A stretch of DNA of 64,000 nucleotides from a virus: the IMG/VR virus record IMGVR_UViG_3300007276_000045, positions 8,735-72,734 of that record, one strand, 5' to 3'. The notes under the pieces are model-generated. The model did no database searches, was not told the origin of the DNA, and saw only the letters and a list, made by a program, of their open reading frames with translations. Position numbers and translations under genes: made by a program. The number at the start of each line of letters is the position of its first letter. The first letter of the stretch is position 1. Below, in pieces: positions 8,403 through 63,295 of the stretch.

Positions 8403-8930
8403 TCACTTACCCTTCTTAGCAGATGCCTTGAGTTCCTTGACCTTCTTCATGACCTTAGCCTTCTTTGAAGCATTCATCTTCATTTCCTTAGGCTCGTCTT
8501 CTTCTGGGTCCATGGCTTCTTCAACTTCTTCCTCTTCCTCGTCTTCCTCTTCAACTTCCTTTTCGTCGGCAGCTTCTTCAAGAGTTTCAACGGCTTCAAG
8601 AATGTCGTTAACGTGCTCAGAGATACGCTCGTCGGAAAGTTCTTCCTCCAACTTAGACTCGCAGAGGGGGCAAACATGCTCCTCAACCGACTCCTTCATC
8701 TCCTTCTCGTCCTTCTCGTCCTTCTCGTCCTTTTCAGGCTTCTTGCCCTTCTTAGAGCGGAGCTTGGCGAGATCATCACCTTCGATGTCCCCGTCCTTAT
8801 CCTTGTCCATGGCCTTTTGAGCGGGAGAGAGTTCTTTCTTCTCCTCCAGCTTAACCTTTGCGATGTCCCAAGCAGCGTTCTTGATCAGGGCATCTACATA
8901 ACTTTCTTCAACTTTGATGTAATCAGACAT
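8403..8930 (-). CDS. Acidic/basic prohead core-like protein with DxDxDG and CxxC motifs
   Basis: DKDKDGDIEGDD (EF-hand-like loop), HVCPLCES, Glu-rich tract. Confidence 0.6.
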   Translation of the reverse strand: MSDYIKVEESYVDALIKNAAWDIAKVKLEEKKELSPAQKAMDKDKDGDIEGDDLAKLRSKKGKKPEKDEKDEKDEKEMKESVEEHVCPLCESKLEEELSDERISEHVNDILEAVETLEEAADEKEVEEEDEEEEEVEEAMDPEEDEPKEMKMNASKKAKVMKKVKELKASAKKGK

Positions 8931-56164: not shown

Positions 56165-56189
56165 TAACTCCTTTGTTGACAAGCACTTA
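56165..56189 (+). repeat. 25-bp 9-7-9 palindromic site, copy 1
   Basis: TAACTCCTT-TGTTGAC-AAGCACTTA. Confidence 0.85.
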
Positions 56190-56260
56190 CATCAATGAAA
56201 TAAATAAAAAAACATAGGCACCACGCTTGACATTGGCTGAAATTGTGGTATAATGGTAGC

Positions 56261-56344
56261 ACAAGAGTAATAAGCAACTACCAACAAAACGAAGTTTTGT
56301 TCTCGGACAGGAAAACGGAAGCGTTGCTTATTACTGTTGTTCTA
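56261..56344 (+). ncRNA. Candidate structured small RNA from the first early promoter
   Basis: No ATG after the promoter; perfect 13-bp stem AGTAATAAGCAAC/GTTGCTTATTACT enclosing hairpin AACAAAAC-GAA-GTTTTGTT and a GGA-rich strand. Confidence 0.6.
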
Positions 56345-56379
56345 TTGACATTCACAGAAACACTTGGTATAATATACGC

Positions 56380-56508
56380 ATGAAGACACTAATCCTCCTC
56401 GCTCTCGCTGTCACCTTCAACGATTTCATCGGCTCTCTCATCGCCCTCATCGGCTCTCTGATGGTCAGAATCGGTCACAGCATCACCCTCATTCCTGAAC
56501 TTTTTTAG
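56380..56508 (+). CDS. Leaderless hydrophobic micro-protein (42 aa)
   Basis: MKTLILLALAVTFNDFIGSLIALIGSLMVRIGHSITLIPELF*; ATG 6 nt after TATAAT. Confidence 0.65.
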   Translation: MKTLILLALAVTFNDFIGSLIALIGSLMVRIGHSITLIPELF

Positions 56509-56553
56509 GGACTAGGGCTTGACATTCACCCAAACACCTGTTATAATACACCC

Positions 56554-56673
56554 ATGAAATACATCGTGATTCGTTACCACTCCTCCCCTGTCTCCTTCTC
56601 CAGTCTGCAAGACGCAGAGGACTTCGCCCAAGGTTGTGGCGATTTCCAAGATCTTCTGACAAAGAAGGCTTGA
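56554..56673 (+). CDS. Leaderless micro-protein (39 aa)
   Basis: MKYIVIRYHSSPVSFSSLQDAEDFAQGCGDFQDLLTKKA*; stop TGA lies inside the next TTGACA. Confidence 0.65.
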   Translation: MKYIVIRYHSSPVSFSSLQDAEDFAQGCGDFQDLLTKKA

Positions 56674-56817
56674 CATTCTCACAAACACTTGGTATAATAC
56701 ACCCATGCATTACTAAAGGGCTGTCCTACCCAAGCCACCACTTGGAAGTCCCACTGGACCCGAAAAAAACTCCCCTTACCCCTTGACATTCACCCAAACA
56801 CTTGGTATAATATACAC

Positions 56818-57024
56818 ATGAAAGAAAAAATGACATTTGAAGAATTCACCACTCAACTCGGTTACGCCGATTGGTTCTACATGATGAGTGATGACAGTCG
56901 CTCCTACAATGCTGGTCGTGACCAGATCCAAACCCTTAAGAACTTCGCTATCTCTATGGGTGGAGAATGGCAAGAGGCTTTCGAAGCCAAGTCTAAGGAA
57001 ATGATGTCCCGTCTCCACGGATAA
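56818..57024 (+). CDS. Leaderless hypothetical early protein (68 aa)
   Basis: ATG 6 nt after TATAAT; DW.Y..SDD...Y..G motif. Confidence 0.8.
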   Translation: MKEKMTFEEFTTQLGYADWFYMMSDDSRSYNAGRDQIQTLKNFAISMGGEWQEAFEAKSKEMMSRLHG

Positions 57025-57028
57025 TAAT

Positions 57029-57331
57029 ATGAATTCTCTCCATCTTCATCTCGTCAAAGACGATACGATCATGTCCCATAAGACTGGGGCACTCTGCGGA
57101 ATAGATTACGATGATATCGTGGACGTTCTAGGTGAACCCAACGTCTTCGATGATTTCGGCAAGGTCCGATGGTCTTGGGGCTTTCGTATGATGCCTGATA
57201 ATAAGCCCATGTCTATATGGGACTGGAAAGGGTCAGCGGATTATAACCAGTGGAGCATCTACGGTGCTACTGAGGACTGGGCCAAACTGTTTCCCAATGC
57301 CTTTACCTATCTCAGAGATTTATCAAAATAG
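57029..57331 (+). CDS. Hypothetical early protein (100 aa)
   Basis: Coupled to the previous ORF; Y..IV..LGEP...D..KV...W and IWDWK motifs. Confidence 0.75.
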   Translation: MNSLHLHLVKDDTIMSHKTGALCGIDYDDIVDVLGEPNVFDDFGKVRWSWGFRMMPDNKPMSIWDWKGSADYNQWSIYGATEDWAKLFPNAFTYLRDLSK

Positions 57332-57368
57332 CTCTTGATTTTTTAAAAAAGGGCCGGGTGAAAGCCCC

Positions 57369-57393
57369 TAAGTCCATTGTTGACAAGGGGTTA
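57369..57393 (+). repeat. 25-bp palindromic site, copy 2 (variant)
   Basis: TAAGTCCAT-TGTTGAC-AAGGGGTTA, preceded by TTTTTTAAAAAAGGGCCGGG. Confidence 0.8.
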
Positions 57394-57455
57394 GGACAGA
57401 AAGTTTTTTAGGACAGGGGGTTGACATTTGCCCAAACACCTGTTATAATACACAC

Positions 57456-57683
57456 ATGAAAAATAACACTACTACCTATCAAGTTCAATCAGTTCACAAT
57501 CACGTTCTCTCTACTCGTCCTCTTCGGACTGGAAAAATGGTCTACTTCACAGGGACCAAAGAAGAGTGCGAAGGTTGGAGGACTAACCCTCTCTTCGCTG
57601 ATCAAGTCCGAAAGGCTTTTGAAGGCACTACCTACAAGTCTCGCTCGACTGCGATCCGAGAAGTTTCTCTAGAAACTGCTTGA
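57456..57683 (+). CDS. Leaderless hypothetical protein (75 aa), paralogue of 63095-63295
   Basis: QVQSVH..VLS..PL.TGK.VYFTGT.EEC shared with the later ORF. Confidence 0.8.
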   Translation: MKNNTTTYQVQSVHNHVLSTRPLRTGKMVYFTGTKEECEGWRTNPLFADQVRKAFEGTTYKSRSTAIREVSLETA

Positions 57684-57714
57684 CATTCACTACCTCACTT
57701 GGTATAATACACAC

Positions 57715-57924
57715 ATGAAAAATCCCATTGATTACTTCGACCTTGCCTGTGACCTTGACCGCTGCTTCCCGTGGCACATTAAAGGCGTGCTGATGGCCGT
57801 CTCTACCCATACCAACGTCGAAGGCTACGATGTCTGCCCTCAGCGTATAGCTCTGGACTACCTCAAGGTGTTCTATGCTGATGAGCTTGCTGATGCAGAA
57901 ATGAAAGAAAACGCTCAAGGTTAG
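57715..57924 (+). CDS. Leaderless hypothetical protein (69 aa)
   Basis: ATG 6 nt after TATAAT. Confidence 0.75.
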   Translation: MKNPIDYFDLACDLDRCFPWHIKGVLMAVSTHTNVEGYDVCPQRIALDYLKVFYADELADAEMKENAQG

Positions 57925-57960
57925 TTGACATTTGGTCGATAATATAGTATAATGAAAGAC

Positions 57961-58446
57961 ATGAAAGAAACACTGAAGATCCTCCTCTCCTCGCTCTTGG
58001 GCTATGCTCTCTGGCTTGCTCTCGCCTTCTACGCTCTTAGTGGCGCAGTTAGTGCCCAAACGCACTACGAGCACATCGTAGCTAAGGATGGACTCACTAA
58101 GGCTACGGAATACGTTAATGCAATCCGTGACAACATTCGCCCTGAGCTACACTCTAAGCTAGCTCCCTATGTCTCAGCTATTCGCTACGCTGAGAATGGT
58201 GGCAAGGGTCGTGAATATGGGATTCTCCACCCACGGGTAAAGCCTACTTATCGCTCTCAAGCTGGTTGGTGTGCTGCTACTGTCCAGAAGAACTATGACC
58301 GATGGGTCAAGGCTGGCTCTAAAGGTGAGTTCGTGGTATTCCTCGGAAAGCGTTACTGTCCCGTAGGTGCAGACAATGACCCTAACGGTCTAAACAAGCA
58401 CTGGATTAAAAATGTGAGGAGGCTATATGCGAAACACTCCCGATGA
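57961..58446 (+). CDS. Membrane-anchored/exported lysozyme-fold (glucosaminidase-like) protein
   Basis: N-terminal hydrophobic helix; AIRYAENG (candidate catalytic Glu); RYCPVGADNDPNGLNKHWIKNV C-terminal motif. Start moved to the leaderless ATG at 57961. Confidence 0.6.
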   Translation: MKETLKILLSSLLGYALWLALAFYALSGAVSAQTHYEHIVAKDGLTKATEYVNAIRDNIRPELHSKLAPYVSAIRYAENGGKGREYGILHPRVKPTYRSQAGWCAATVQKNYDRWVKAGSKGEFVVFLGKRYCPVGADNDPNGLNKHWIKNVRRLYAKHSR

Positions 58447-58537
58447 TGGTCTAAATTTCTTTCGTGGCGTTCTATCCGTCACCGCGATCTATTTCCTCTG
58501 TCTTTGGATTGTCTGCATTTTTATGTTGATTTTTTAA
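58427..58537 (+). CDS. Single-TM micro-protein (36 aa)
   Basis: GAGGAGG SD then MRNTPDDGLNFFRGVLSVTAIYFLCLWIVCIFMLIF*. Confidence 0.6.
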   Translation: MRNTPDDGLNFFRGVLSVTAIYFLCLWIVCIFMLIF

Positions 58538-58558
58538 AAAAGGGCCGGGGCGCAGCCC

Positions 58559-58583
58559 TAAGTCCTTTGTTGACAAGCACTTA
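58559..58583 (+). repeat. 25-bp palindromic site, copy 3
   Basis: TAAGTCCTT-TGTTGAC-AAGCACTTA, preceded by GGGCCGGGGCGCAGCCC. Confidence 0.9.
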
Positions 58584-58655
58584 CGACGATTAAAAAAAGA
58601 AAAAAAACAAGGCCCATCCCTTGACAGTGGGGGCATTTCGTGGTATAATACACGC

Positions 58656-58766
58656 ATGAAAAACACCTTTCACGTTCACGCTTGGACCGTCATCTCGGCA
58701 AGCTCCCACATCGAAACCCACCAGTGCATTGATTGCGGCGAAAAACGCACAATTTATGTGGACTAG
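58656..58766 (+). CDS. Leaderless zinc-ribbon-like micro-protein (36 aa)
   Basis: MKNTFHVHAWTVISASSHIETHQCIDCGEKRTIYVD* with HxH and CxxCG. Confidence 0.7.
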   Translation: MKNTFHVHAWTVISASSHIETHQCIDCGEKRTIYVD

Positions 58767-58804
58767 GGCTTGACATTCACCCCTTAACTTGGTATAATAC
58801 ACCC

Positions 58805-59146
58805 ATGAAGACAGAGATTCAAAATACCCCAATCATCACCGTTCCGACCCATCGCAAAGGTCTGAAGCAGGTTTCTTTCCCGCACCACGACTACGTTCTG
58901 TCTATAGGGTATGGCAAAGGTCACTACGCCTCTTGGGTGATTGGTGGTCGTTGGGACGAGGAGGGATCGCAGCACTTCCCTACTACGTTCGAGCTTGCGG
59001 TTCTGGACAAGGACGGTAAATTCTACCCCCTTACATCTTGCGATGATGTTGCTGGTTGGCAACCCATCGACATGATCGAGATCATTGTTGACCGTATGAG
59101 TCGCTACCATTTCGATATCGCAGAATTGAAGTATTTCTGCGACTAA
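58805..59146 (+). CDS. Leaderless hypothetical protein (113 aa)
   Basis: ATG 6 nt after TATAAT; FELAVL and DDV.GW motifs. Confidence 0.75.
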   Translation: MKTEIQNTPIITVPTHRKGLKQVSFPHHDYVLSIGYGKGHYASWVIGGRWDEEGSQHFPTTFELAVLDKDGKFYPLTSCDDVAGWQPIDMIEIIVDRMSRYHFDIAELKYFCD

Positions 59147-59240
59147 CCCCTTGACATTCACTCCTCCATTTGTTATAATGGGGGGAACAAACGAGGCAAG
59201 TAGTCCTCACAACCTGACCCATATCCAAGGAGATATTACT

Positions 59241-59612
59241 ATGACCGATAGAAAGCAACGCACCCCAGCCGAGATCATCGCAGAAACCGAGGCGAAACTT
59301 GAACGCCTCAAGGTAAAGCAAGCAAAGCAGGAAGCCAAGAGCAATCCCGCCGTGGCACCCCTGATGGCAGAGCTTGACGGTCTGCGGAAGGACATTCGAG
59401 AAGCAAAGAAAGGTCTTGGGGACGGTCCCCAGTCTTTCAACGCTCGCGCCGACAAGCACCTAGTGTGGCTTGACAAGATCGAAGCCGAGCGGGAAGCCGC
59501 GCAGGATACTTTGGCGAGTGCGGAGACGCGCAAGTCGGAGATTGAGGCCCTGATCGCTGAGACGATCAACGGCATCGTAGATTCCTCTGACGAAATCACG
59601 TTAGAGGCTTGA
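59241..59612 (+). CDS. Coiled-coil early protein (123 aa), leadered
   Basis: AAGGAG SD; MTDRKQRTPAEIIAETEAKLERLK...; stop lies in the next -35. Confidence 0.8.
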   Translation: MTDRKQRTPAEIIAETEAKLERLKVKQAKQEAKSNPAVAPLMAELDGLRKDIREAKKGLGDGPQSFNARADKHLVWLDKIEAEREAAQDTLASAETRKSEIEALIAETINGIVDSSDEITLEA

Positions 59613-59683
59613 CAAACTGAGGGGATCATGCTATAATGGTTCCCTCAACTAACCCCTTTTCTTATCTATAGGAGATTCTTACT

Positions 59684-59914
59684 ATGCTTTCAAGCATCAC
59701 AAATGTCGTGCGTTCGAACCAGAACGCTGTTATGATCCGAGTTGGTAACGGTTGCGCTTCTAGTGCAGTCTATACCATCTTCGACCTGAAGAGCCAGAGC
59801 AACACCTACACGGGCACGCTCAACTCTTGCAAAAAGGCGTGGAACCGCCATTACATGAACTCTCGGCAGTTCGTGACCCGTGACGGTCTAAACCACCGCT
59901 ACATGAGTAAGTAG
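59684..59914 (+). CDS. Hypothetical early protein (76 aa), leadered
   Basis: TAGGAG SD; own promoter at 59609. Confidence 0.75.
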   Translation: MLSSITNVVRSNQNAVMIRVGNGCASSAVYTIFDLKSQSNTYTGTLNSCKKAWNRHYMNSRQFVTRDGLNHRYMSK

Positions 59915-60127
59915 TTCCCGACTCGACTGGGCGAGTATAAATAGCTTGTAGGCCCAGAGCGTCCCTGAGGGAAGAAGGCGAGCAATTGCTCAGACCTCAC
60001 CCTCAGGGGGATAGAGAAAAAAGAGGAGTCCGATACATTACGATGTGCCTTCTTAGCCCTTCGGGGACATCATCGGTAAGACGATGCACGGCTTGGTCTG
60101 TGGCACGGGACGCTCCTCTTTTTTCTC
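59915..60127 (+). ncRNA. Candidate multi-domain structured RNA
   Basis: Successive stems CTGGGC/GCCCAG; CCCTGAGGG/CCCTCAGGG with inner GAGC-AATT-GCTC; perfect 15-bp GAGAAAAAAGAGGAG/CTCCTCTTTTTTCTC closing a multibranch loop. Confidence 0.55.
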
Positions 60128-60170
60128 ACTTTCTTCTTGCAATTTTGAAAAAATCGCCGGGGCGAAGCCC

Positions 60171-60195
60171 TAAGTCCTTTGTTGACAAGCACTTA
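60171..60195 (+). repeat. 25-bp palindromic site, copy 4
   Basis: TAAGTCCTT-TGTTGAC-AAGCACTTA, preceded by GCCGGGGCGAAGCCC. Confidence 0.9.
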
Positions 60196-60256
60196 CGACC
60201 AAAAGTTTTTTAATGCTAGCCCTTGACATTCTCCGATTGTGTGGTATAATGTATGC

Positions 60257-60379
60257 ATGAACACGTTACCTCCCAATGCTCTCTTCCCCGTTCCCCCTGT
60301 CTGCTCTGCCTACTGGACCAATGCCCAGTGGTATCACTGGTGGGTCAACAGCGGAGGAAAAACCGCAAAAACCTCTTGA
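60257..60379 (+). CDS. Leaderless Pro/Trp-rich micro-protein (40 aa)
   Basis: MNTLPPNALFPVPPVCSAYWTNAQWYHWWVNSGGKTAKTS*; stop lies in the next TTGACA. Confidence 0.6.
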   Translation: MNTLPPNALFPVPPVCSAYWTNAQWYHWWVNSGGKTAKTS

Positions 60380-60410
60380 CATTTCCCCCACCCTTTGGTA
60401 TAATACACGC

Positions 60411-60833
60411 ATGAAAAAGAAAGCCTTCGTATTTGATCTCGACGGAACACTGTTCGAGACTACTGCAAAAGAAATCGAGTCTGCCCACGGTCACGCTCGC
60501 TACATCGAATTTTCAGACACTGAGAAGCTCCTGAAGGAATCAAAGCCTCGCTCCCTTGTCTCGTTCGCTCTTACTGTGCAGAGTGAAGGTCATCGTGTGT
60601 ATGTTCTCACGGCTAGAAACTCCCTCATCTACCGAGCTATCCGCACCCTCTTAGAGCGTTACGGCATCGACGCAGAGTATGTTTTTTGTGTAGGGGATCG
60701 AGGTTTCGACATCCCAGAATACAAGGCAGAGATTCTTTCCAGCCTTGCCGAAACACACGCCACCTATTTCTTCGACGATTGCGAAGAAAATCTTTCTGCC
60801 GTCCCTGACGGAATTCGCGCCTTCAAGGCTTGA
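60411..60833 (+). CDS. HAD-superfamily phosphatase (PNK 3'-phosphatase-like), leaderless
   Basis: FDLDGT (motif I), VLTAR (II), K (III), FFDD (IV); true start 60411. Confidence 0.85.
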   Translation: MKKKAFVFDLDGTLFETTAKEIESAHGHARYIEFSDTEKLLKESKPRSLVSFALTVQSEGHRVYVLTARNSLIYRAIRTLLERYGIDAEYVFCVGDRGFDIPEYKAEILSSLAETHATYFFDDCEENLSAVPDGIRAFKA

Positions 60834-60864
60834 CATCTTCTCCCCTTTGTGGTATAATACACGC

Positions 60865-61170
60865 ATGAAACTCCTCACTGATGAAATCAAATCTTCCCTT
60901 CCCGCTCTCTACTCCACTGAGGGAGACGGTGACAAGAAAATCGTCTGCAAGTTCTTCAACCCTGTAGGGGCTGGCACTTGGTATATTTGCGAAGGTCAAG
61001 AACAAGCCAACGGTGATTGGCTACTGTTCGGCCTTTGTGACCTAGGCTTCGGAATGCCTGAGTGGGGCTATGTCTCACTTAACGAACTGGAGTCTGTCTC
61101 TCTTCCTTTCGGTATGGGCATCGAAAGGGATATCTTTTTCTCGCCCAACACTCTATCTTCTGAGGTTTAA
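60865..61170 (+). CDS. DUF2958-like protein, leaderless
   Basis: LP.LYSTE, KFF.P.G..TWY, FGL.DLG.G.PE.GYVSL.EL and IERD..F motifs. Confidence 0.8.
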   Translation: MKLLTDEIKSSLPALYSTEGDGDKKIVCKFFNPVGAGTWYICEGQEQANGDWLLFGLCDLGFGMPEWGYVSLNELESVSLPFGMGIERDIFFSPNTLSSEV

Positions 61171-61173
61171 TTT

Positions 61174-61362
61174 ATGAATGTTTCCATCAAGGAAAACAAC
61201 GGTGTTTCAACTCTCGTCATCGAGACCCCTGTTTCACTTCGCCCGTCTAAGTCTGGTAAGACTATGCTCGTCGCTTCTAGCGGTGGCAACATCACCACGA
61301 CTGCGATGGTTGACGGTAAGCCCGTCACGGTAGGCTTGAACGCCTACATCCCCAAGGGCTAA
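61174..61362 (+). CDS. Small hypothetical protein (62 aa)
   Basis: PSKSGKT.LVASSGGN...VGLNAY motif; GAGG SD. Confidence 0.75.
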   Translation: MNVSIKENNGVSTLVIETPVSLRPSKSGKTMLVASSGGNITTTAMVDGKPVTVGLNAYIPKG

Positions 61363-61374
61363 CGCCTGAGGGTT

Positions 61375-61444
61375 AGGTGGGGGGCATGGTTGCCTTCGGA
61401 GCCATTAGGCGAGTCCAGCAACCAACCCCCACCTTATTTTTCTC
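61375..61444 (+). terminator. Long hairpin (terminator and/or structured RNA module)
   Basis: AGGTGGGGG/CCCCCACCT plus TGGTTGC/GCAACCA stems, followed by TATTTTT. Confidence 0.6.
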
Positions 61445-61475
61445 ATTTTGTGCTTGACGCGCCGGGGCGAAGCCC

Positions 61476-61500
61476 TAAGTCCTTTGTTGACAAGCACTTA
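61476..61500 (+). repeat. 25-bp palindromic site, copy 5
   Basis: TAAGTCCTT-TGTTGAC-AAGCACTTA, preceded by GCCGGGGCGAAGCCC. Confidence 0.9.
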
Positions 61501-61572
61501 CGTTCACAAGAAATCCAAAAAAAACTAGACCACCCCCTTGACATTTGCCCAACCACTTGGTATAATACACAC

Positions 61573-61643
61573 ATGAAGAAACGAGGAAGCCTCTGCTGCT
61601 TTGATGACCCTAGATAAGGATTCGAAGTTTCCTCTTTTTCTTC
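61573..61643 (+). ncRNA. Stem-closed small RNA cassette (also contains the 14-codon ORF MKKRGSLCCFDDPR)
   Basis: 5' GAAGAAACGAGGAAGC pairs with 3' GTTTCCTCTTTTTCTTC, spanning from the predicted +1 to the next -35. Confidence 0.45.
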
Positions 61644-61678
61644 TTGACATTCACCCAACCACTTGGTATAATACACAC

Positions 61679-61900
61679 ATGAAAAATCCCCAATACTCCC
61701 TTGAAGCCACCTTCAAGCACCAAGGCATCGAGCAGATGCTCTCCAACCTCACTGGCGTATCCCGTAAGGGTGCCGTTGCTGAGGCATCATGCGCCACCTG
61801 CAAAGGTGAGGCTTCCTCTTTCCGTGATGAGGTTTCCGAGAAGGAATACACCATCTCTGGCATGTGCCAGACCTGCCAAGATGATATTTTTGGCAAGTAA
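61679..61900 (+). CDS. Leaderless zinc-finger protein (73 aa)
   Basis: CATC...FRDEVS.KEY.ISGMCQ.CQD.IFG. Confidence 0.8.
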   Translation: MKNPQYSLEATFKHQGIEQMLSNLTGVSRKGAVAEASCATCKGEASSFRDEVSEKEYTISGMCQTCQDDIFGK

Positions 61901-61939
61901 CCCCTTGACATCCACCCTCTAACCTGTTATAATACACAC

Positions 61940-62206
61940 ATGAAAAATCTCCAAGATACTACTGATTTCGAACTCACGGGCGATAACCTCGATGAGTATA
62001 CCGCTCACCAAGAAGCCGAGCTTCTTTCTGACATGAACGATGAGCCTGAGCTTGTCGATGATGATGAACTCAAGTCACTGCTCCAAGAGCTTTGGCAAGA
62101 GGAAGCTGCCCTTGCTATGAAGCGAGAGCAGGAAGAAGAGGAATACACCGAGCGTGATGCGTTCGATGATTTCTACAACGATTACGCCAACGAAATGGAG
62201 GGCTAA
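61940..62206 (+). CDS. Leaderless highly acidic protein (88 aa)
   Basis: About one third Asp/Glu; ATG 6 nt after TATAAT. Confidence 0.8.
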   Translation: MKNLQDTTDFELTGDNLDEYTAHQEAELLSDMNDEPELVDDDELKSLLQELWQEEAALAMKREQEEEEYTERDAFDDFYNDYANEMEG

Positions 62207-62209
62207 ACT

Positions 62210-62509
62210 ATGAGAGTTGATATCCACAGCATCGACCAAATCAAGGTCGATATTCACAAGTCCGATTGGGAAGGAACCAAGAACGGTTGGTTTTCACTGA
62301 AGTTTGATAAGAAGAATTATTGGGAAGAAGAACCCAAGGAAGCGGATTATGAAACCACTTTGTTTTGCGAGGACATCGAAAACGCCTACGCTACGCTGAT
62401 TCAAAACCTTCAACGAGCTATGGAAGTTGCGCGTGTAAAGCACGCCGAGGGACTTGCAAAGCGTAAGGCTGAGGAAGCAGCAGAAAAAGAAAAGGAGGCG
62501 AACGCCTGA
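62210..62509 (+). CDS. Hypothetical protein (99 aa)
   Basis: GGAGG upstream; coupled to the previous ORF. Confidence 0.75.
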   Translation: MRVDIHSIDQIKVDIHKSDWEGTKNGWFSLKFDKKNYWEEEPKEADYETTLFCEDIENAYATLIQNLQRAMEVARVKHAEGLAKRKAEEAAEKEKEANA

Positions 62510-62823
62510 TGGATCACGGAGACTACTTTGCCTCTTACGAACCTACACCGCGCATTGAGGAGTGGGCGATTGTTGGAGACGCTAACCCCTACCAAGCCCC
62601 AGAACTCAGGGAGTTACGGATCACGGGGTTGGTATACGGCCATCCAAGGTTTAATGATGGGCAGGTAGTCACCACTTCGCCCGTTCGTGCCTCTGCTGGT
62701 CATACGGTCGAAACACATAACACAACATACAACCTTGGCAGGATGTCGGAGGAATACAAGAAGTGGTGTTCTTCAATGGGGATTGAGGTGGATGCCTCCG
62801 CTCCTGTCAAGGTCTTTTCTTAA
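62509..62823 (+). CDS. Hypothetical protein with G.VYGHPRF.DG motif (104 aa)
   Basis: AAGGAGG SD; I.G.VYGHPRF.DG..V.TS.V and T.NT.Y.LG motifs. Confidence 0.75.
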   Translation: MDHGDYFASYEPTPRIEEWAIVGDANPYQAPELRELRITGLVYGHPRFNDGQVVTTSPVRASAGHTVETHNTTYNLGRMSEEYKKWCSSMGIEVDASAPVKVFS

Positions 62824-62837
62824 AAGTTTCGCGGTCC

Positions 62838-62862
62838 TAAGTTGTTGTCAACGCAGCACTTA
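62838..62862 (-). repeat. 25-bp palindromic site, copy 6 (inverted orientation)
   Basis: Reverse complement reads TAAGTGCTG-CGTTGAC-AACAACTTA. Confidence 0.75.
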
Positions 62863-62888
62863 GGTTCGCGGGGCCGGGGCCGAGGCCC

Positions 62889-62913
62889 TAAGTCCTTTGT
62901 TGACAAGCACTTA
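62889..62913 (+). repeat. 25-bp palindromic site, copy 7
   Basis: TAAGTCCTT-TGTTGAC-AAGCACTTA, preceded by GGGCCGGGGCCGAGGCCC. Confidence 0.9.
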
Positions 62914-62986
62914 CGCACGCTGAAAAAAATTAAAAAACCGAGGCCCTACCCTTGACAAACCCCACCAGACTTGGTATAATACACAC

Positions 62987-63094: not shown

Positions 63095-63295
63095 ATGAAA
63101 AACACCTCTCCTACCTTTCAAGTTCAGTCGGTCCATGACCGCGTTCTCTCTCTCAACCCTCTTGTAACTGGCAAGACGGTCTACTTCACTGGCACCCTTG
63201 AAGAGTGCAAAGCGCACAAGATCGATTGGGTTGGTGAGTATCGGAACACCATCTACAAAGCTCGATCTACTATGATCCGAGAAGTTTCCCAATAA
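63095..63295 (+). CDS. Leaderless hypothetical protein (66 aa), paralogue of 57456-57683
   Basis: MKNTSPTFQVQSVHDRVLSLNPLVTGKTVYFTGTLEEC...; own promoter at 63060. Confidence 0.8.
   Translation: MKNTSPTFQVQSVHDRVLSLNPLVTGKTVYFTGTLEECKAHKIDWVGEYRNTIYKARSTMIREVSQ

Follow-up and report, generated by a model that had tools for sequence, protein, structure and literature searches.

A repeated 25-bp dyad between early transcription units of an uncultured T4-like phage, and its candidate role as a protein-binding site

The DNA considered here is a 64,000-nucleotide stretch (the window) of the IMG/VR virus record IMGVR_UViG_3300007276_000045, and its subject is a 25-base palindrome, with 9-bp arms around a 7-bp spacer, that recurs in an array of small early genes. 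The window covers positions 8735–72734 of the linear 72.7-kb record (labelled G000), whose completeness was estimated by CheckV at 65%. A T4-type major capsid protein, a portal, a large terminase and a UvsW-like helicase are encoded in it. Structural genes occupy the minus strand from 1 to 54.5 kb; beyond about 56 kb, and as far as the record extends, small genes follow on the plus strand. The capsid protein shares only ~30% identity with that of any cultured phage, and the 8-kb array gave no match when compared with cultured phages by megablast. Judged from these sequences, the phage belongs to a distant T4-like lineage that is uncultured and without a close cultured relative; it looks lytic.

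Six direct copies of the palindrome and one inverted partner were located, all between 56.1 and 62.9 kb of the window. A search of the plus strand with the 25-mer returned exact copies at 58559–58583 (M3), 60171–60195 (M4), 61476–61500 (M5) and 62889–62913 (M7) and a copy with one arm mismatch at 56165–56189 (M1), giving five matches compared with none across 100 shuffles. The core TTGTTGACAAG additionally recovered a degenerate plus-strand copy at 57369–57393 (M2), in which four arm positions are mismatched and the spacer is intact. The remaining copy, at 62838–62862 (M6), is a diverged inverted partner that starts 51 bp before the start of M7 and whose spacer, one change apart, is the reverse complement of that in the other copies. 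Read along the direction of transcription, the dyad has the form TAAGTCCTT-N7-AAGCACTTA. These are the seven copies reported in a preliminary description of the locus. No copy outside 56165–62913 was found on either strand of the window at up to three arm mismatches, and the further copies which that description proposed to look for in the rest of the genome are absent from the whole 72.7-kb record at up to three mismatches.

Every copy lies between called open reading frames (ORFs), in agreement with the earlier placement of the copies between cassettes and never inside genes; for the direct copies the distance from the preceding stop codon varies from 14 to 256 nt. The GC boxes reported before copies 2–5 and 7 and the A/T tracts reported after every direct copy were likewise present. 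Five direct copies are preceded by a small GC hairpin, which was recovered in the minimum-energy fold of two modules. Directly before M2 the GC box occupies 57351–57368 and is itself preceded by a T6A6 tract; the hairpin before M3 (58542–58558) is followed on the minus strand by a T run and scored terminator-like; the hairpins before M4 (60155–60170) and M5 (61460–61475) are identical to each other; and a GC-rich 26-nt linker (62863–62888) connects M6 to M7. M4 and M5 are identical over ~43 nt, GC box included, which fits a recent spread of the entire module. Weak counter-evidence to spread of this kind comes from M2, where the chance of an unchanged spacer at the observed arm divergence was estimated by us at ~0.1.

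Beyond the preliminary description, a perfect sigma-70-type promoter (TTGACA-N16/17-TGnTATAAT) was found to begin 27, 37 or 38 nt after every direct copy. The gaps between dyad and -35 box are, in order, 37, 27, 37, 27, 37 and 38 nt, with the promoters at 56227–56254 (after M1; 12 of 12 hexamer matches and a TG extended -10 box), 57421–57449 (after M2), 58621–58649 (after M3), 60223–60250 (after M4), 61538–61566 (after M5) and 62952–62980 (after M7), all on the plus strand. These belong to a set of 22 plus-strand sigma-70-type promoters between 56227 and 63527 of the 8-kb array, 21 of which are perfect in both hexamers and 20 of those carry the TG extended -10 box. The palindrome is attached to six of the 22, being found only at the first promoter of each unit. 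At 18 of the 22 an ATG follows the -10 box by 6–7 nt, so that most early mRNAs would be leaderless; this holds for the transcripts predicted to start behind M2 (a 75-aa ORF, with its ATG 6 nt after the -10 box), M3 and M4. Almost all of the small early genes are thus equipped with a promoter of their own and would yield a leaderless mRNA.

To place this module among related sequences, loci carrying it were gathered from portal-based searches and from pattern matches, four of them as whole contigs. The orthologous first module of six relatives was aligned by anchoring on a conserved upstream element and on the downstream promoter, and in this alignment 13 of the 18 arm columns and none of the seven spacer columns were invariant. 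Within the window the pattern is the opposite, with seven of seven spacer positions identical in the six direct copies and arm mismatches of 0, 0, 0, 0, 1 and 4. The preliminary statement that the spacer is nearly invariant and the arms drift was thus accurate for the window and does not extend to the family. With the arms fixed and the spacer left free, at least 138 IMG/VR stretches with exact arms were retrieved, and at least 64 distinct contigs were represented among the 80 IMG/VR matches listed; a looser pattern with 14 specified bases gave single chance matches and was not used. No spacer was seen more than three times among 107 dereplicated sites, and 33 sites in five large motif-bearing records (G161–G165) had 32 distinct spacers, the copies being clustered in a single 5–16-kb region of each genome. 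Spacers also differ among the copies of one relative (G001), and several other contigs have identical spacers in their own copies. The half-sites were drawn from a small repertoire in which TAAGTCCTT and TAAGTGCTT dominate, and a flank consensus (107 sites), approximately G-N-C-S ahead of the dyad and S-G-N-C behind it, extends the dyad outwards. The motif is more widespread than the window alone shows: many uncultured phages with no relation to one another have it, as do some chromosomes of Planctomycetota. A search of the text of the literature, by arm sequences and for palindromic, intergenic or promoter motifs of Planctomycetes, found no description of the motif.

Among 86 dereplicated dyad–promoter pairs, 35 gaps fell at 26–33 nt and 26 at 37–46 nt, with a modest periodicity of 10–10.5 bp (R 0.27, p about 0.003, relatedness not removed). 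At loci that had not been picked by an asymmetric pattern, TCC...CAC pointed towards the promoter at 9 of 15 sites and the reverse arrangement was seen at none. The fixed or phased distance between dyad and promoter is a property of the window's lineage and not of most sites of the broad family.

Paired dyads were frequent. In 146 dereplicated pairs the start-to-start distance was 53 bp in 71, 52 bp in 18, 50–51 bp in 15 and 42 bp in 11, and the linker was 75% G+C; the window's own pair, M6 and M7, is 51 bp apart. Because these distances approximate five or four helical turns, both dyads would be expected on the same face of the helix. The typical paired element had no similar DNA among cultured phages.

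Several observations bear on whether the dyad acts as DNA or as a folded RNA. Complementarity between the flanks of the 107 sites was not above that of shuffles, though their sequence is conserved, and at non-canonical sites the inner arm positions were complementary in only 39–46%. Plus-strand folds of five single modules were no better than shuffles (z -0.68 to +1.51), RNAalifold recovered no structure from 69 dereplicated paired elements, and Rfam contained no family covering the dyad in the window or in 16 related loci. A restricted half-site repertoire without maintained pairing is the pattern of a protein half-site and not of a paired stem, and conserved half-sites around an unconstrained centre are what an operator would display. 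An RT-3 match of Rfam at 61382–61520 was below threshold (21.3 against 40.5 bits) and was taken as chance.

We then asked which organisms share the site. BLASTP (E up to 1e-4) detected no protein family shared by the window's record and the motif-bearing records G161, G163 and G164. A common phage-encoded binder was also sought by all-against-all BLASTP of G000, G161, G163, G164 and parts of G162 and G165, and was rejected when no family common to G000 and the others appeared. On the bacterial side, the arms-only pattern matched 63 stretches of bacterial or archaeal contigs, 27 of them labelled as Planctomycetota lineages, with ~17 expected by chance on a rough estimate of our own. One chromosome, a metagenome-assembled genome of the Phycisphaerales (G006), carried 15 sites at up to one mismatch compared with none for a reversed control, and all of its spacers were different. 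These sites are mostly intergenic. Several form the central part of a dispersed, conserved repeat of ~150 bp that adjoins unrelated genes (S41 peptidase, MltA, FtsK, DksA, Rho and others). Seven copies have this context in common, and each of them has its TCC half on the side away from the downstream gene. Sites were present in 21 of 60 other genomes of the same order (32 sites compared with 3 in the control) and in 9 of 150 genomes sampled across the phylum (10 compared with 3). This enrichment, with G006, G220, G216 and G209 among the genomes concerned, suggests that this phage, like many orphan IMG/VR contigs, has a host of the Phycisphaerales type. DNA sequencing runs containing the array are mostly labelled freshwater or aquatic.

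The occurrence of the same dyad in phages without detectable shared proteins and in chromosomes of the order of G006 makes a host factor the simpler proposal and a common phage-encoded binder unlikely. The LexA (SOS) box of the host was considered and rejected: 3-kb loci around six lexA homologues from four genomes of the order contained no dyad with fewer than three half-site mismatches, and the sole site with three lay ~800 bp downstream of the lexA match, not upstream.

The gene content between modules also varies. At module borders, genes have been gained, lost, replaced or reordered between relatives and metagenomic variants. For example, genes F1 and F2, a pair in G001 and G002, are separated in the window, a 68-aa gene with 94.6% DNA identity has a different preceding neighbour in G002, and the F3–F4 pair, which has modules on both sides in G001 and G003, is found at a different location in G003. 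Logan contigs from four runs showed breaks at dyad modules and at promoter repeats alike, uncovered bins of run X11 being left aside. In one variant from run X16, 57394–57702 is replaced by 245 other letters, with the left edge at the last base of M2 (57393) and the right edge in the -10 box of a promoter. An X16 contig joins 61458 to 62870, skipping the block between M5 and M7 (61459–62869) and adding 11 extra letters; this joint lies 18–19 nt upstream of the dyads and, with a short side of 22, was flagged weak. Another variant, from run X14, skips 56267–56344, between two promoters. The contigs cannot position a crossover inside identical repeats. The idea that gene blocks change at these sites was sound as far as the borders go; the expectation that joints coincide with the TGTTGAC spacer found no clear support, some joints lying at or near dyads and many at promoter repeats that carry no palindrome. 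Breakpoints of the latter kind indicate that homologous exchange between repeats is sufficient, and the best-supported account of the shuffling is that it is a by-product of repetition and not of a spacer-directed recombinase.

Taken together, these observations lead us to favour, with a probability of roughly 45%, the model that a protein, probably a host factor, binds the dyad as a polar site within a cassette resembling the promoter-early stem-loop (PeSL) cassettes of T4-type phages, and that recombination there is ordinary homologous exchange. A DNA-binding regulator had been the second choice of the preliminary description and is the one favoured here. On this model, early transcription units are set apart by a composite punctuation cassette of which the dyad would be the sequence-specific core. 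The cassette opens with an A/T tract; next come a small GC hairpin, with which the upstream unit would end, and the dyad; an A-rich tract then leads to a perfect sigma-70-type promoter, usually followed by a leaderless ATG. The dyad would work as double-stranded DNA bound by a dimeric protein, more likely of the host than of the phage, and dyads 53 bp apart would hold two dimers on one helix face. In each unit the centre of the dyad lies ~75 or 85 bp before the point at which transcription from the first promoter would begin; bound there, the dyad might tune that promoter, by activation or by shut-off, or shield it from read-through. Repetition of the cassette every 1.2–1.6 kb would supply the homology by which ordinary recombination shuffles early genes, as proposed for PeSL cassettes.

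Sites placed upstream of promoters with helical phasing are familiar from class I activation by CRP, from the Fis sites that accompany the UP element of rRNA promoters and from the KorB operators of IncP plasmids. The present dyad resembles them in its fixed position upstream of a core promoter, in two distance classes about one helical turn apart, in the A-rich tract before the -35 box and in the many dispersed copies of one candidate operator. It differs from them in that its centre would lie at about -75 or -85 and in that many copies of the wider family are far from a recognisable promoter. The stoperators of cluster A mycobacteriophages are asymmetric 13–14-bp sites for the repressor of a temperate phage; they share with the dyad the many intergenic copies of one short operator oriented with transcription, whereas here the site is a 25-bp dyad in a phage that looks lytic.

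The closest parallel to the whole cassette is the PeSL cassette, in which, as described, a GC-rich stem-loop is followed by an AT-rich tract and then by a near-perfect sigma-70 promoter (PMC4122927, PMC2839356). PeSL cassettes are further characterised by a stem-loop acting as a terminator and by mini-circles forming between cassettes. The same composite order is found here between small, mostly uncharacterised early genes of a distant T4-like myovirus, and in both cases insertions, deletions and replacements distinguish relatives at the cassettes, in a plastic T4-type region. The passages describing PeSLs mention no conserved 25-bp dyad between stem-loop and AT tract, and they give PeSL genes a Shine-Dalgarno site whereas most genes here are predicted to be leaderless. 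In addition, the dyad described here is common to phages without detectable protein homology and to bacterial chromosomes. The PeSL idea, that regulatory cassettes double as recombination points, would thereby be extended to a distant T4-like lineage and would gain a new conserved component. Control of early transcription in phages of Planctomycetota and of uncultured aquatic bacteria is almost unexplored, and a short shared motif provides a handle that can be tested at the bench. The same motif would also serve as a host lead for a large set of orphan viral contigs.

A number of findings weigh against a dedicated protein-binding site. Pfam and PHROGs scans provided no candidate binder, neither among the array ORFs, where no DNA-binding family was found, nor among the host neighbours, and the genes flanking host sites formed no coherent regulon and included no regulator gene beside the sites. 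In the broad family, a consensus sigma-70-type promoter was lacking within 130 nt of 72 of 100 dereplicated exact sites. The sites were spread over all four types of intergenic region (convergent in 15 of 64 and divergent in 11 of 64), and 9 of 35 sites start within 8 nt of the upstream stop codon. Considered as a unit, the pair at 62826–62925 does form a single long hairpin (z -3.0 and -4.4). Of the 15 copies in another genome (G010), most lie within one multicopy element, and a C·C mismatch is prevalent in the dyad, a feature that the model does not account for. Finally, the counts were dereplicated without correction for shared ancestry, and related sequences remain among them.

Sites in every kind of intergenic region, some abutting stop codons, keep alive the view that the dyad is a general boundary or a dispersed extragenic palindrome like the repetitive extragenic palindromes (REPs) and bacterial interspersed mosaic elements (BIMEs), occurring singly or head to head around a GC-rich linker. 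Such an element would take effect by forming a hairpin, in RNA or in single-stranded DNA, that helps termination, stabilises mRNA 3′ ends or insulates; it could be mobile, and a location ahead of promoters would be of secondary importance. We regard this view, the main rival, as doubtful, though it accounts for several features: the 9-bp stems start with A/T pairs and carry CGNC tags on their flanks, pairs are frequent, sites are found between co-directional and convergent genes and immediately behind stop codons, the copies in G006 and G010 are dispersed within larger repeats, the window's pair folds, and several copies in bacterial contigs directly adjoin tRNA genes (by eye). The CGTC-tagged REPs are described as having 8–9-bp stems starting from A/T pairs, a loop of 4–5 nt and a tag at one end, as forming mostly head-to-head dimers and as lacking a dedicated transposase (PMC3733652). 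The present element is alike in being intergenic, in its 9-bp A/T-starting stems, CG-rich flank tags and frequent head-to-head pairs, and in the absence of a transposase. It is unlike them in its 7-nt loop, its tag on both sides, its usual stem mismatch, the absence of covariation, and its location in phage early regions with a polarity towards promoters. Neither arms nor flanks covary, no consensus structure emerged and single copies fold no better than shuffles; structure alone does not explain why the stem sequence is kept across protein-unrelated phages and a bacterial order, and in the window's lineage the promoter distance is fixed and the orientation polar.

A bolder form of the protein-binding model, which we consider improbable as it stands, takes the full 25-28-25-bp element as the recognition site of a new conserved host factor of Phycisphaerales-type bacteria. 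Phages without detectable shared proteins would each have adopted arrays of it as a portable combination of boundary and enhancer, and lineages could use it as a splice point held in common when they exchange early genes that are ready for expression. If a host-factor element was indeed adopted by several phage lineages, lineages infecting the same hosts would have a shared point at which to swap early genes.

The preliminary description had preferred a tyrosine-recombinase crossover site, with the arms bound by the enzyme, strand exchange in the 7-bp spacer, and blocks between direct copies excised, amplified or swapped in the manner of integron cassettes. Simple recombinase core sites of the lox, FRT and dif type do consist of inverted arms around a 6–8-bp asymmetric spacer, and the seven copies fit that layout, with 9-bp arms (up to 13 bp with the flanks) and direct repeats that flank gene blocks. 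The spacer is identical in six direct copies, even in the one with four arm changes, and several other contigs have identical spacers in their own copies; X16 contigs lack the M5–M7 block 61459–62869 or diverge exactly at the last base of M2, and the module-bounded F3–F4 pair is relocated in G003. We nevertheless hold this reading to be very unlikely. As reported earlier, the window contains no recombinase gene, and searches of phage records, host enzymes being outside their scope, found no PF00589 (Phage_integrase) match in G000 (65% complete) or in G161–G165 (G161 being 95% complete) and no PF00239 (Resolvase) match in the five records G000 and G161–G164. Spacer identity is not a trait of the family: spacers differ within most genomes, and with 32 distinct spacers at 33 sites the copies within a genome could not recombine by spacer identity. 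The identity seen in the window fits recent spread of whole modules. Breakpoints are not confined to the dyads, many falling at dyad-free promoter repeats, and the 61458/62870 joint is weak, offset from the dyads and interrupted by extra letters. An integron attC site would require a long imperfect palindrome that folds as a hairpin with extrahelical bases, beside an integron integrase and attI; neither such a hairpin nor an integrase was found, single modules folding no better than shuffles. The integron-like reading, attractive as it was, is not borne out by the family-wide data, and neither an integron-like nor a lox-like system has emerged from them.

Scarcely probable is a promoter for an alternative sigma factor, in which an arm would take the part of a -35-like box and the CGNC flank, 16 nt beyond it, that of a -10-like box, possibly in both directions by symmetry. 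Such a geometry is that of extracytoplasmic function (ECF)-type promoters; C-G-N-C directly follows the right arm in about 60–70% of the 107 sites, the element is polar, and Sigma70_r2 proteins are encoded in G000 (outside the window), in G003 (a weak match) and in G165, with BLASTP relatives in G162–G165 that match too. However, no such sigma match is present in G161 (95% complete), conservation extends to the second arm, which would not be expected of a spacer, the sites of G006 have not retained the CGNC flank, and the early genes already own perfect sigma-70-type promoters. The Sigma70_r2 match of G000 (25.6 bits) lies in a 119-aa frame at G000:C1:3654-3800, and that frame may encode a gp55-like late sigma factor of a T4-like phage.

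Hardly to be credited, lastly, is a dyad with no function of its own, a passenger in a tandemly amplified terminator–promoter cassette that matters only as recombination homology, for the near-identity of promoters beyond their hexamers, the M4/M5 identity and the breaking of assembly graphs at these repeats are set against arms kept while spacer and flanks diverge in orthologous modules, and kept in distinct phage contigs and in bacterial chromosomes.

Other promoter features were noted. An enhancer for sigma-54 promoters was considered as a role for the dyad and rejected: the window has no sigma-54-like site, and elsewhere 18 of 143 sites have one within 250 nt, at varying position and orientation. 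As a separate observation, strict sigma-54-type words (TGGCAY-N5-TTGCH) numbered 43 in 269 kb of motif-bearing viral loci, with ~0.8 expected by our own estimate (IMG/VR loci L205–L342, e.g. L210, L221, L243 and L332, and L124), an excess which suggests that some motif-bearing phages may use sigma-54 promoters. One class of promoters, for instance that at 57925–57953 and those in loci of G001, G002, G003, G161 and G163, carries CGATAA (or GTCGATAAT) between -35 and -10. Promoters of this class recur in phages without shared proteins, often as the first promoter after a dyad, and similar CGATAGA words stand upstream of lexA homologues in the host order.

The region around M1 has features of its own. 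Between 56020 and 56165 there are four occurrences of GGAGTCCCTAG-like words, and directly upstream of M1 lies an element of ~60 nt (GGAGAGGAACGGAGTCCC ... GCGAAATC.TCCGG) that is conserved in six relatives. No tRNA and no Rfam family was found at this element, and a tRNA-like reading of nearby conserved pieces was abandoned when ARAGORN reported no tRNA in the window. The promoter after M1 has no ORF behind it; instead, an 84-nt plus-strand stretch (56261–56344) folds as a long stem (-26 kcal/mol, z -4.7) and is possibly a small RNA; the X14 variant lacks 56267–56344 of it.

Within the array, two genes encode a small HAD-family phosphatase (60411–60833; annotated as polynucleotide-kinase-like in PHROGs) and a DUF2958 protein (60865–61170); the other ORFs belong to no known family. 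Those at 57456–57683 and 63095–63295, both on the plus strand, each form the first sizeable gene after their copy (M2 and M7, respectively) and appear to be paralogues by eye, without alignment; Pfam and PHROGs scans assigned them no family, and they have close relatives only. Finally, a Pistol self-cleaving ribozyme (RF02679) was identified on the plus strand at 59921–59975, with 49.4 bits against a gathering score of 34.5, in the 256-nt non-coding stretch that separates a 76-aa gene from M4.

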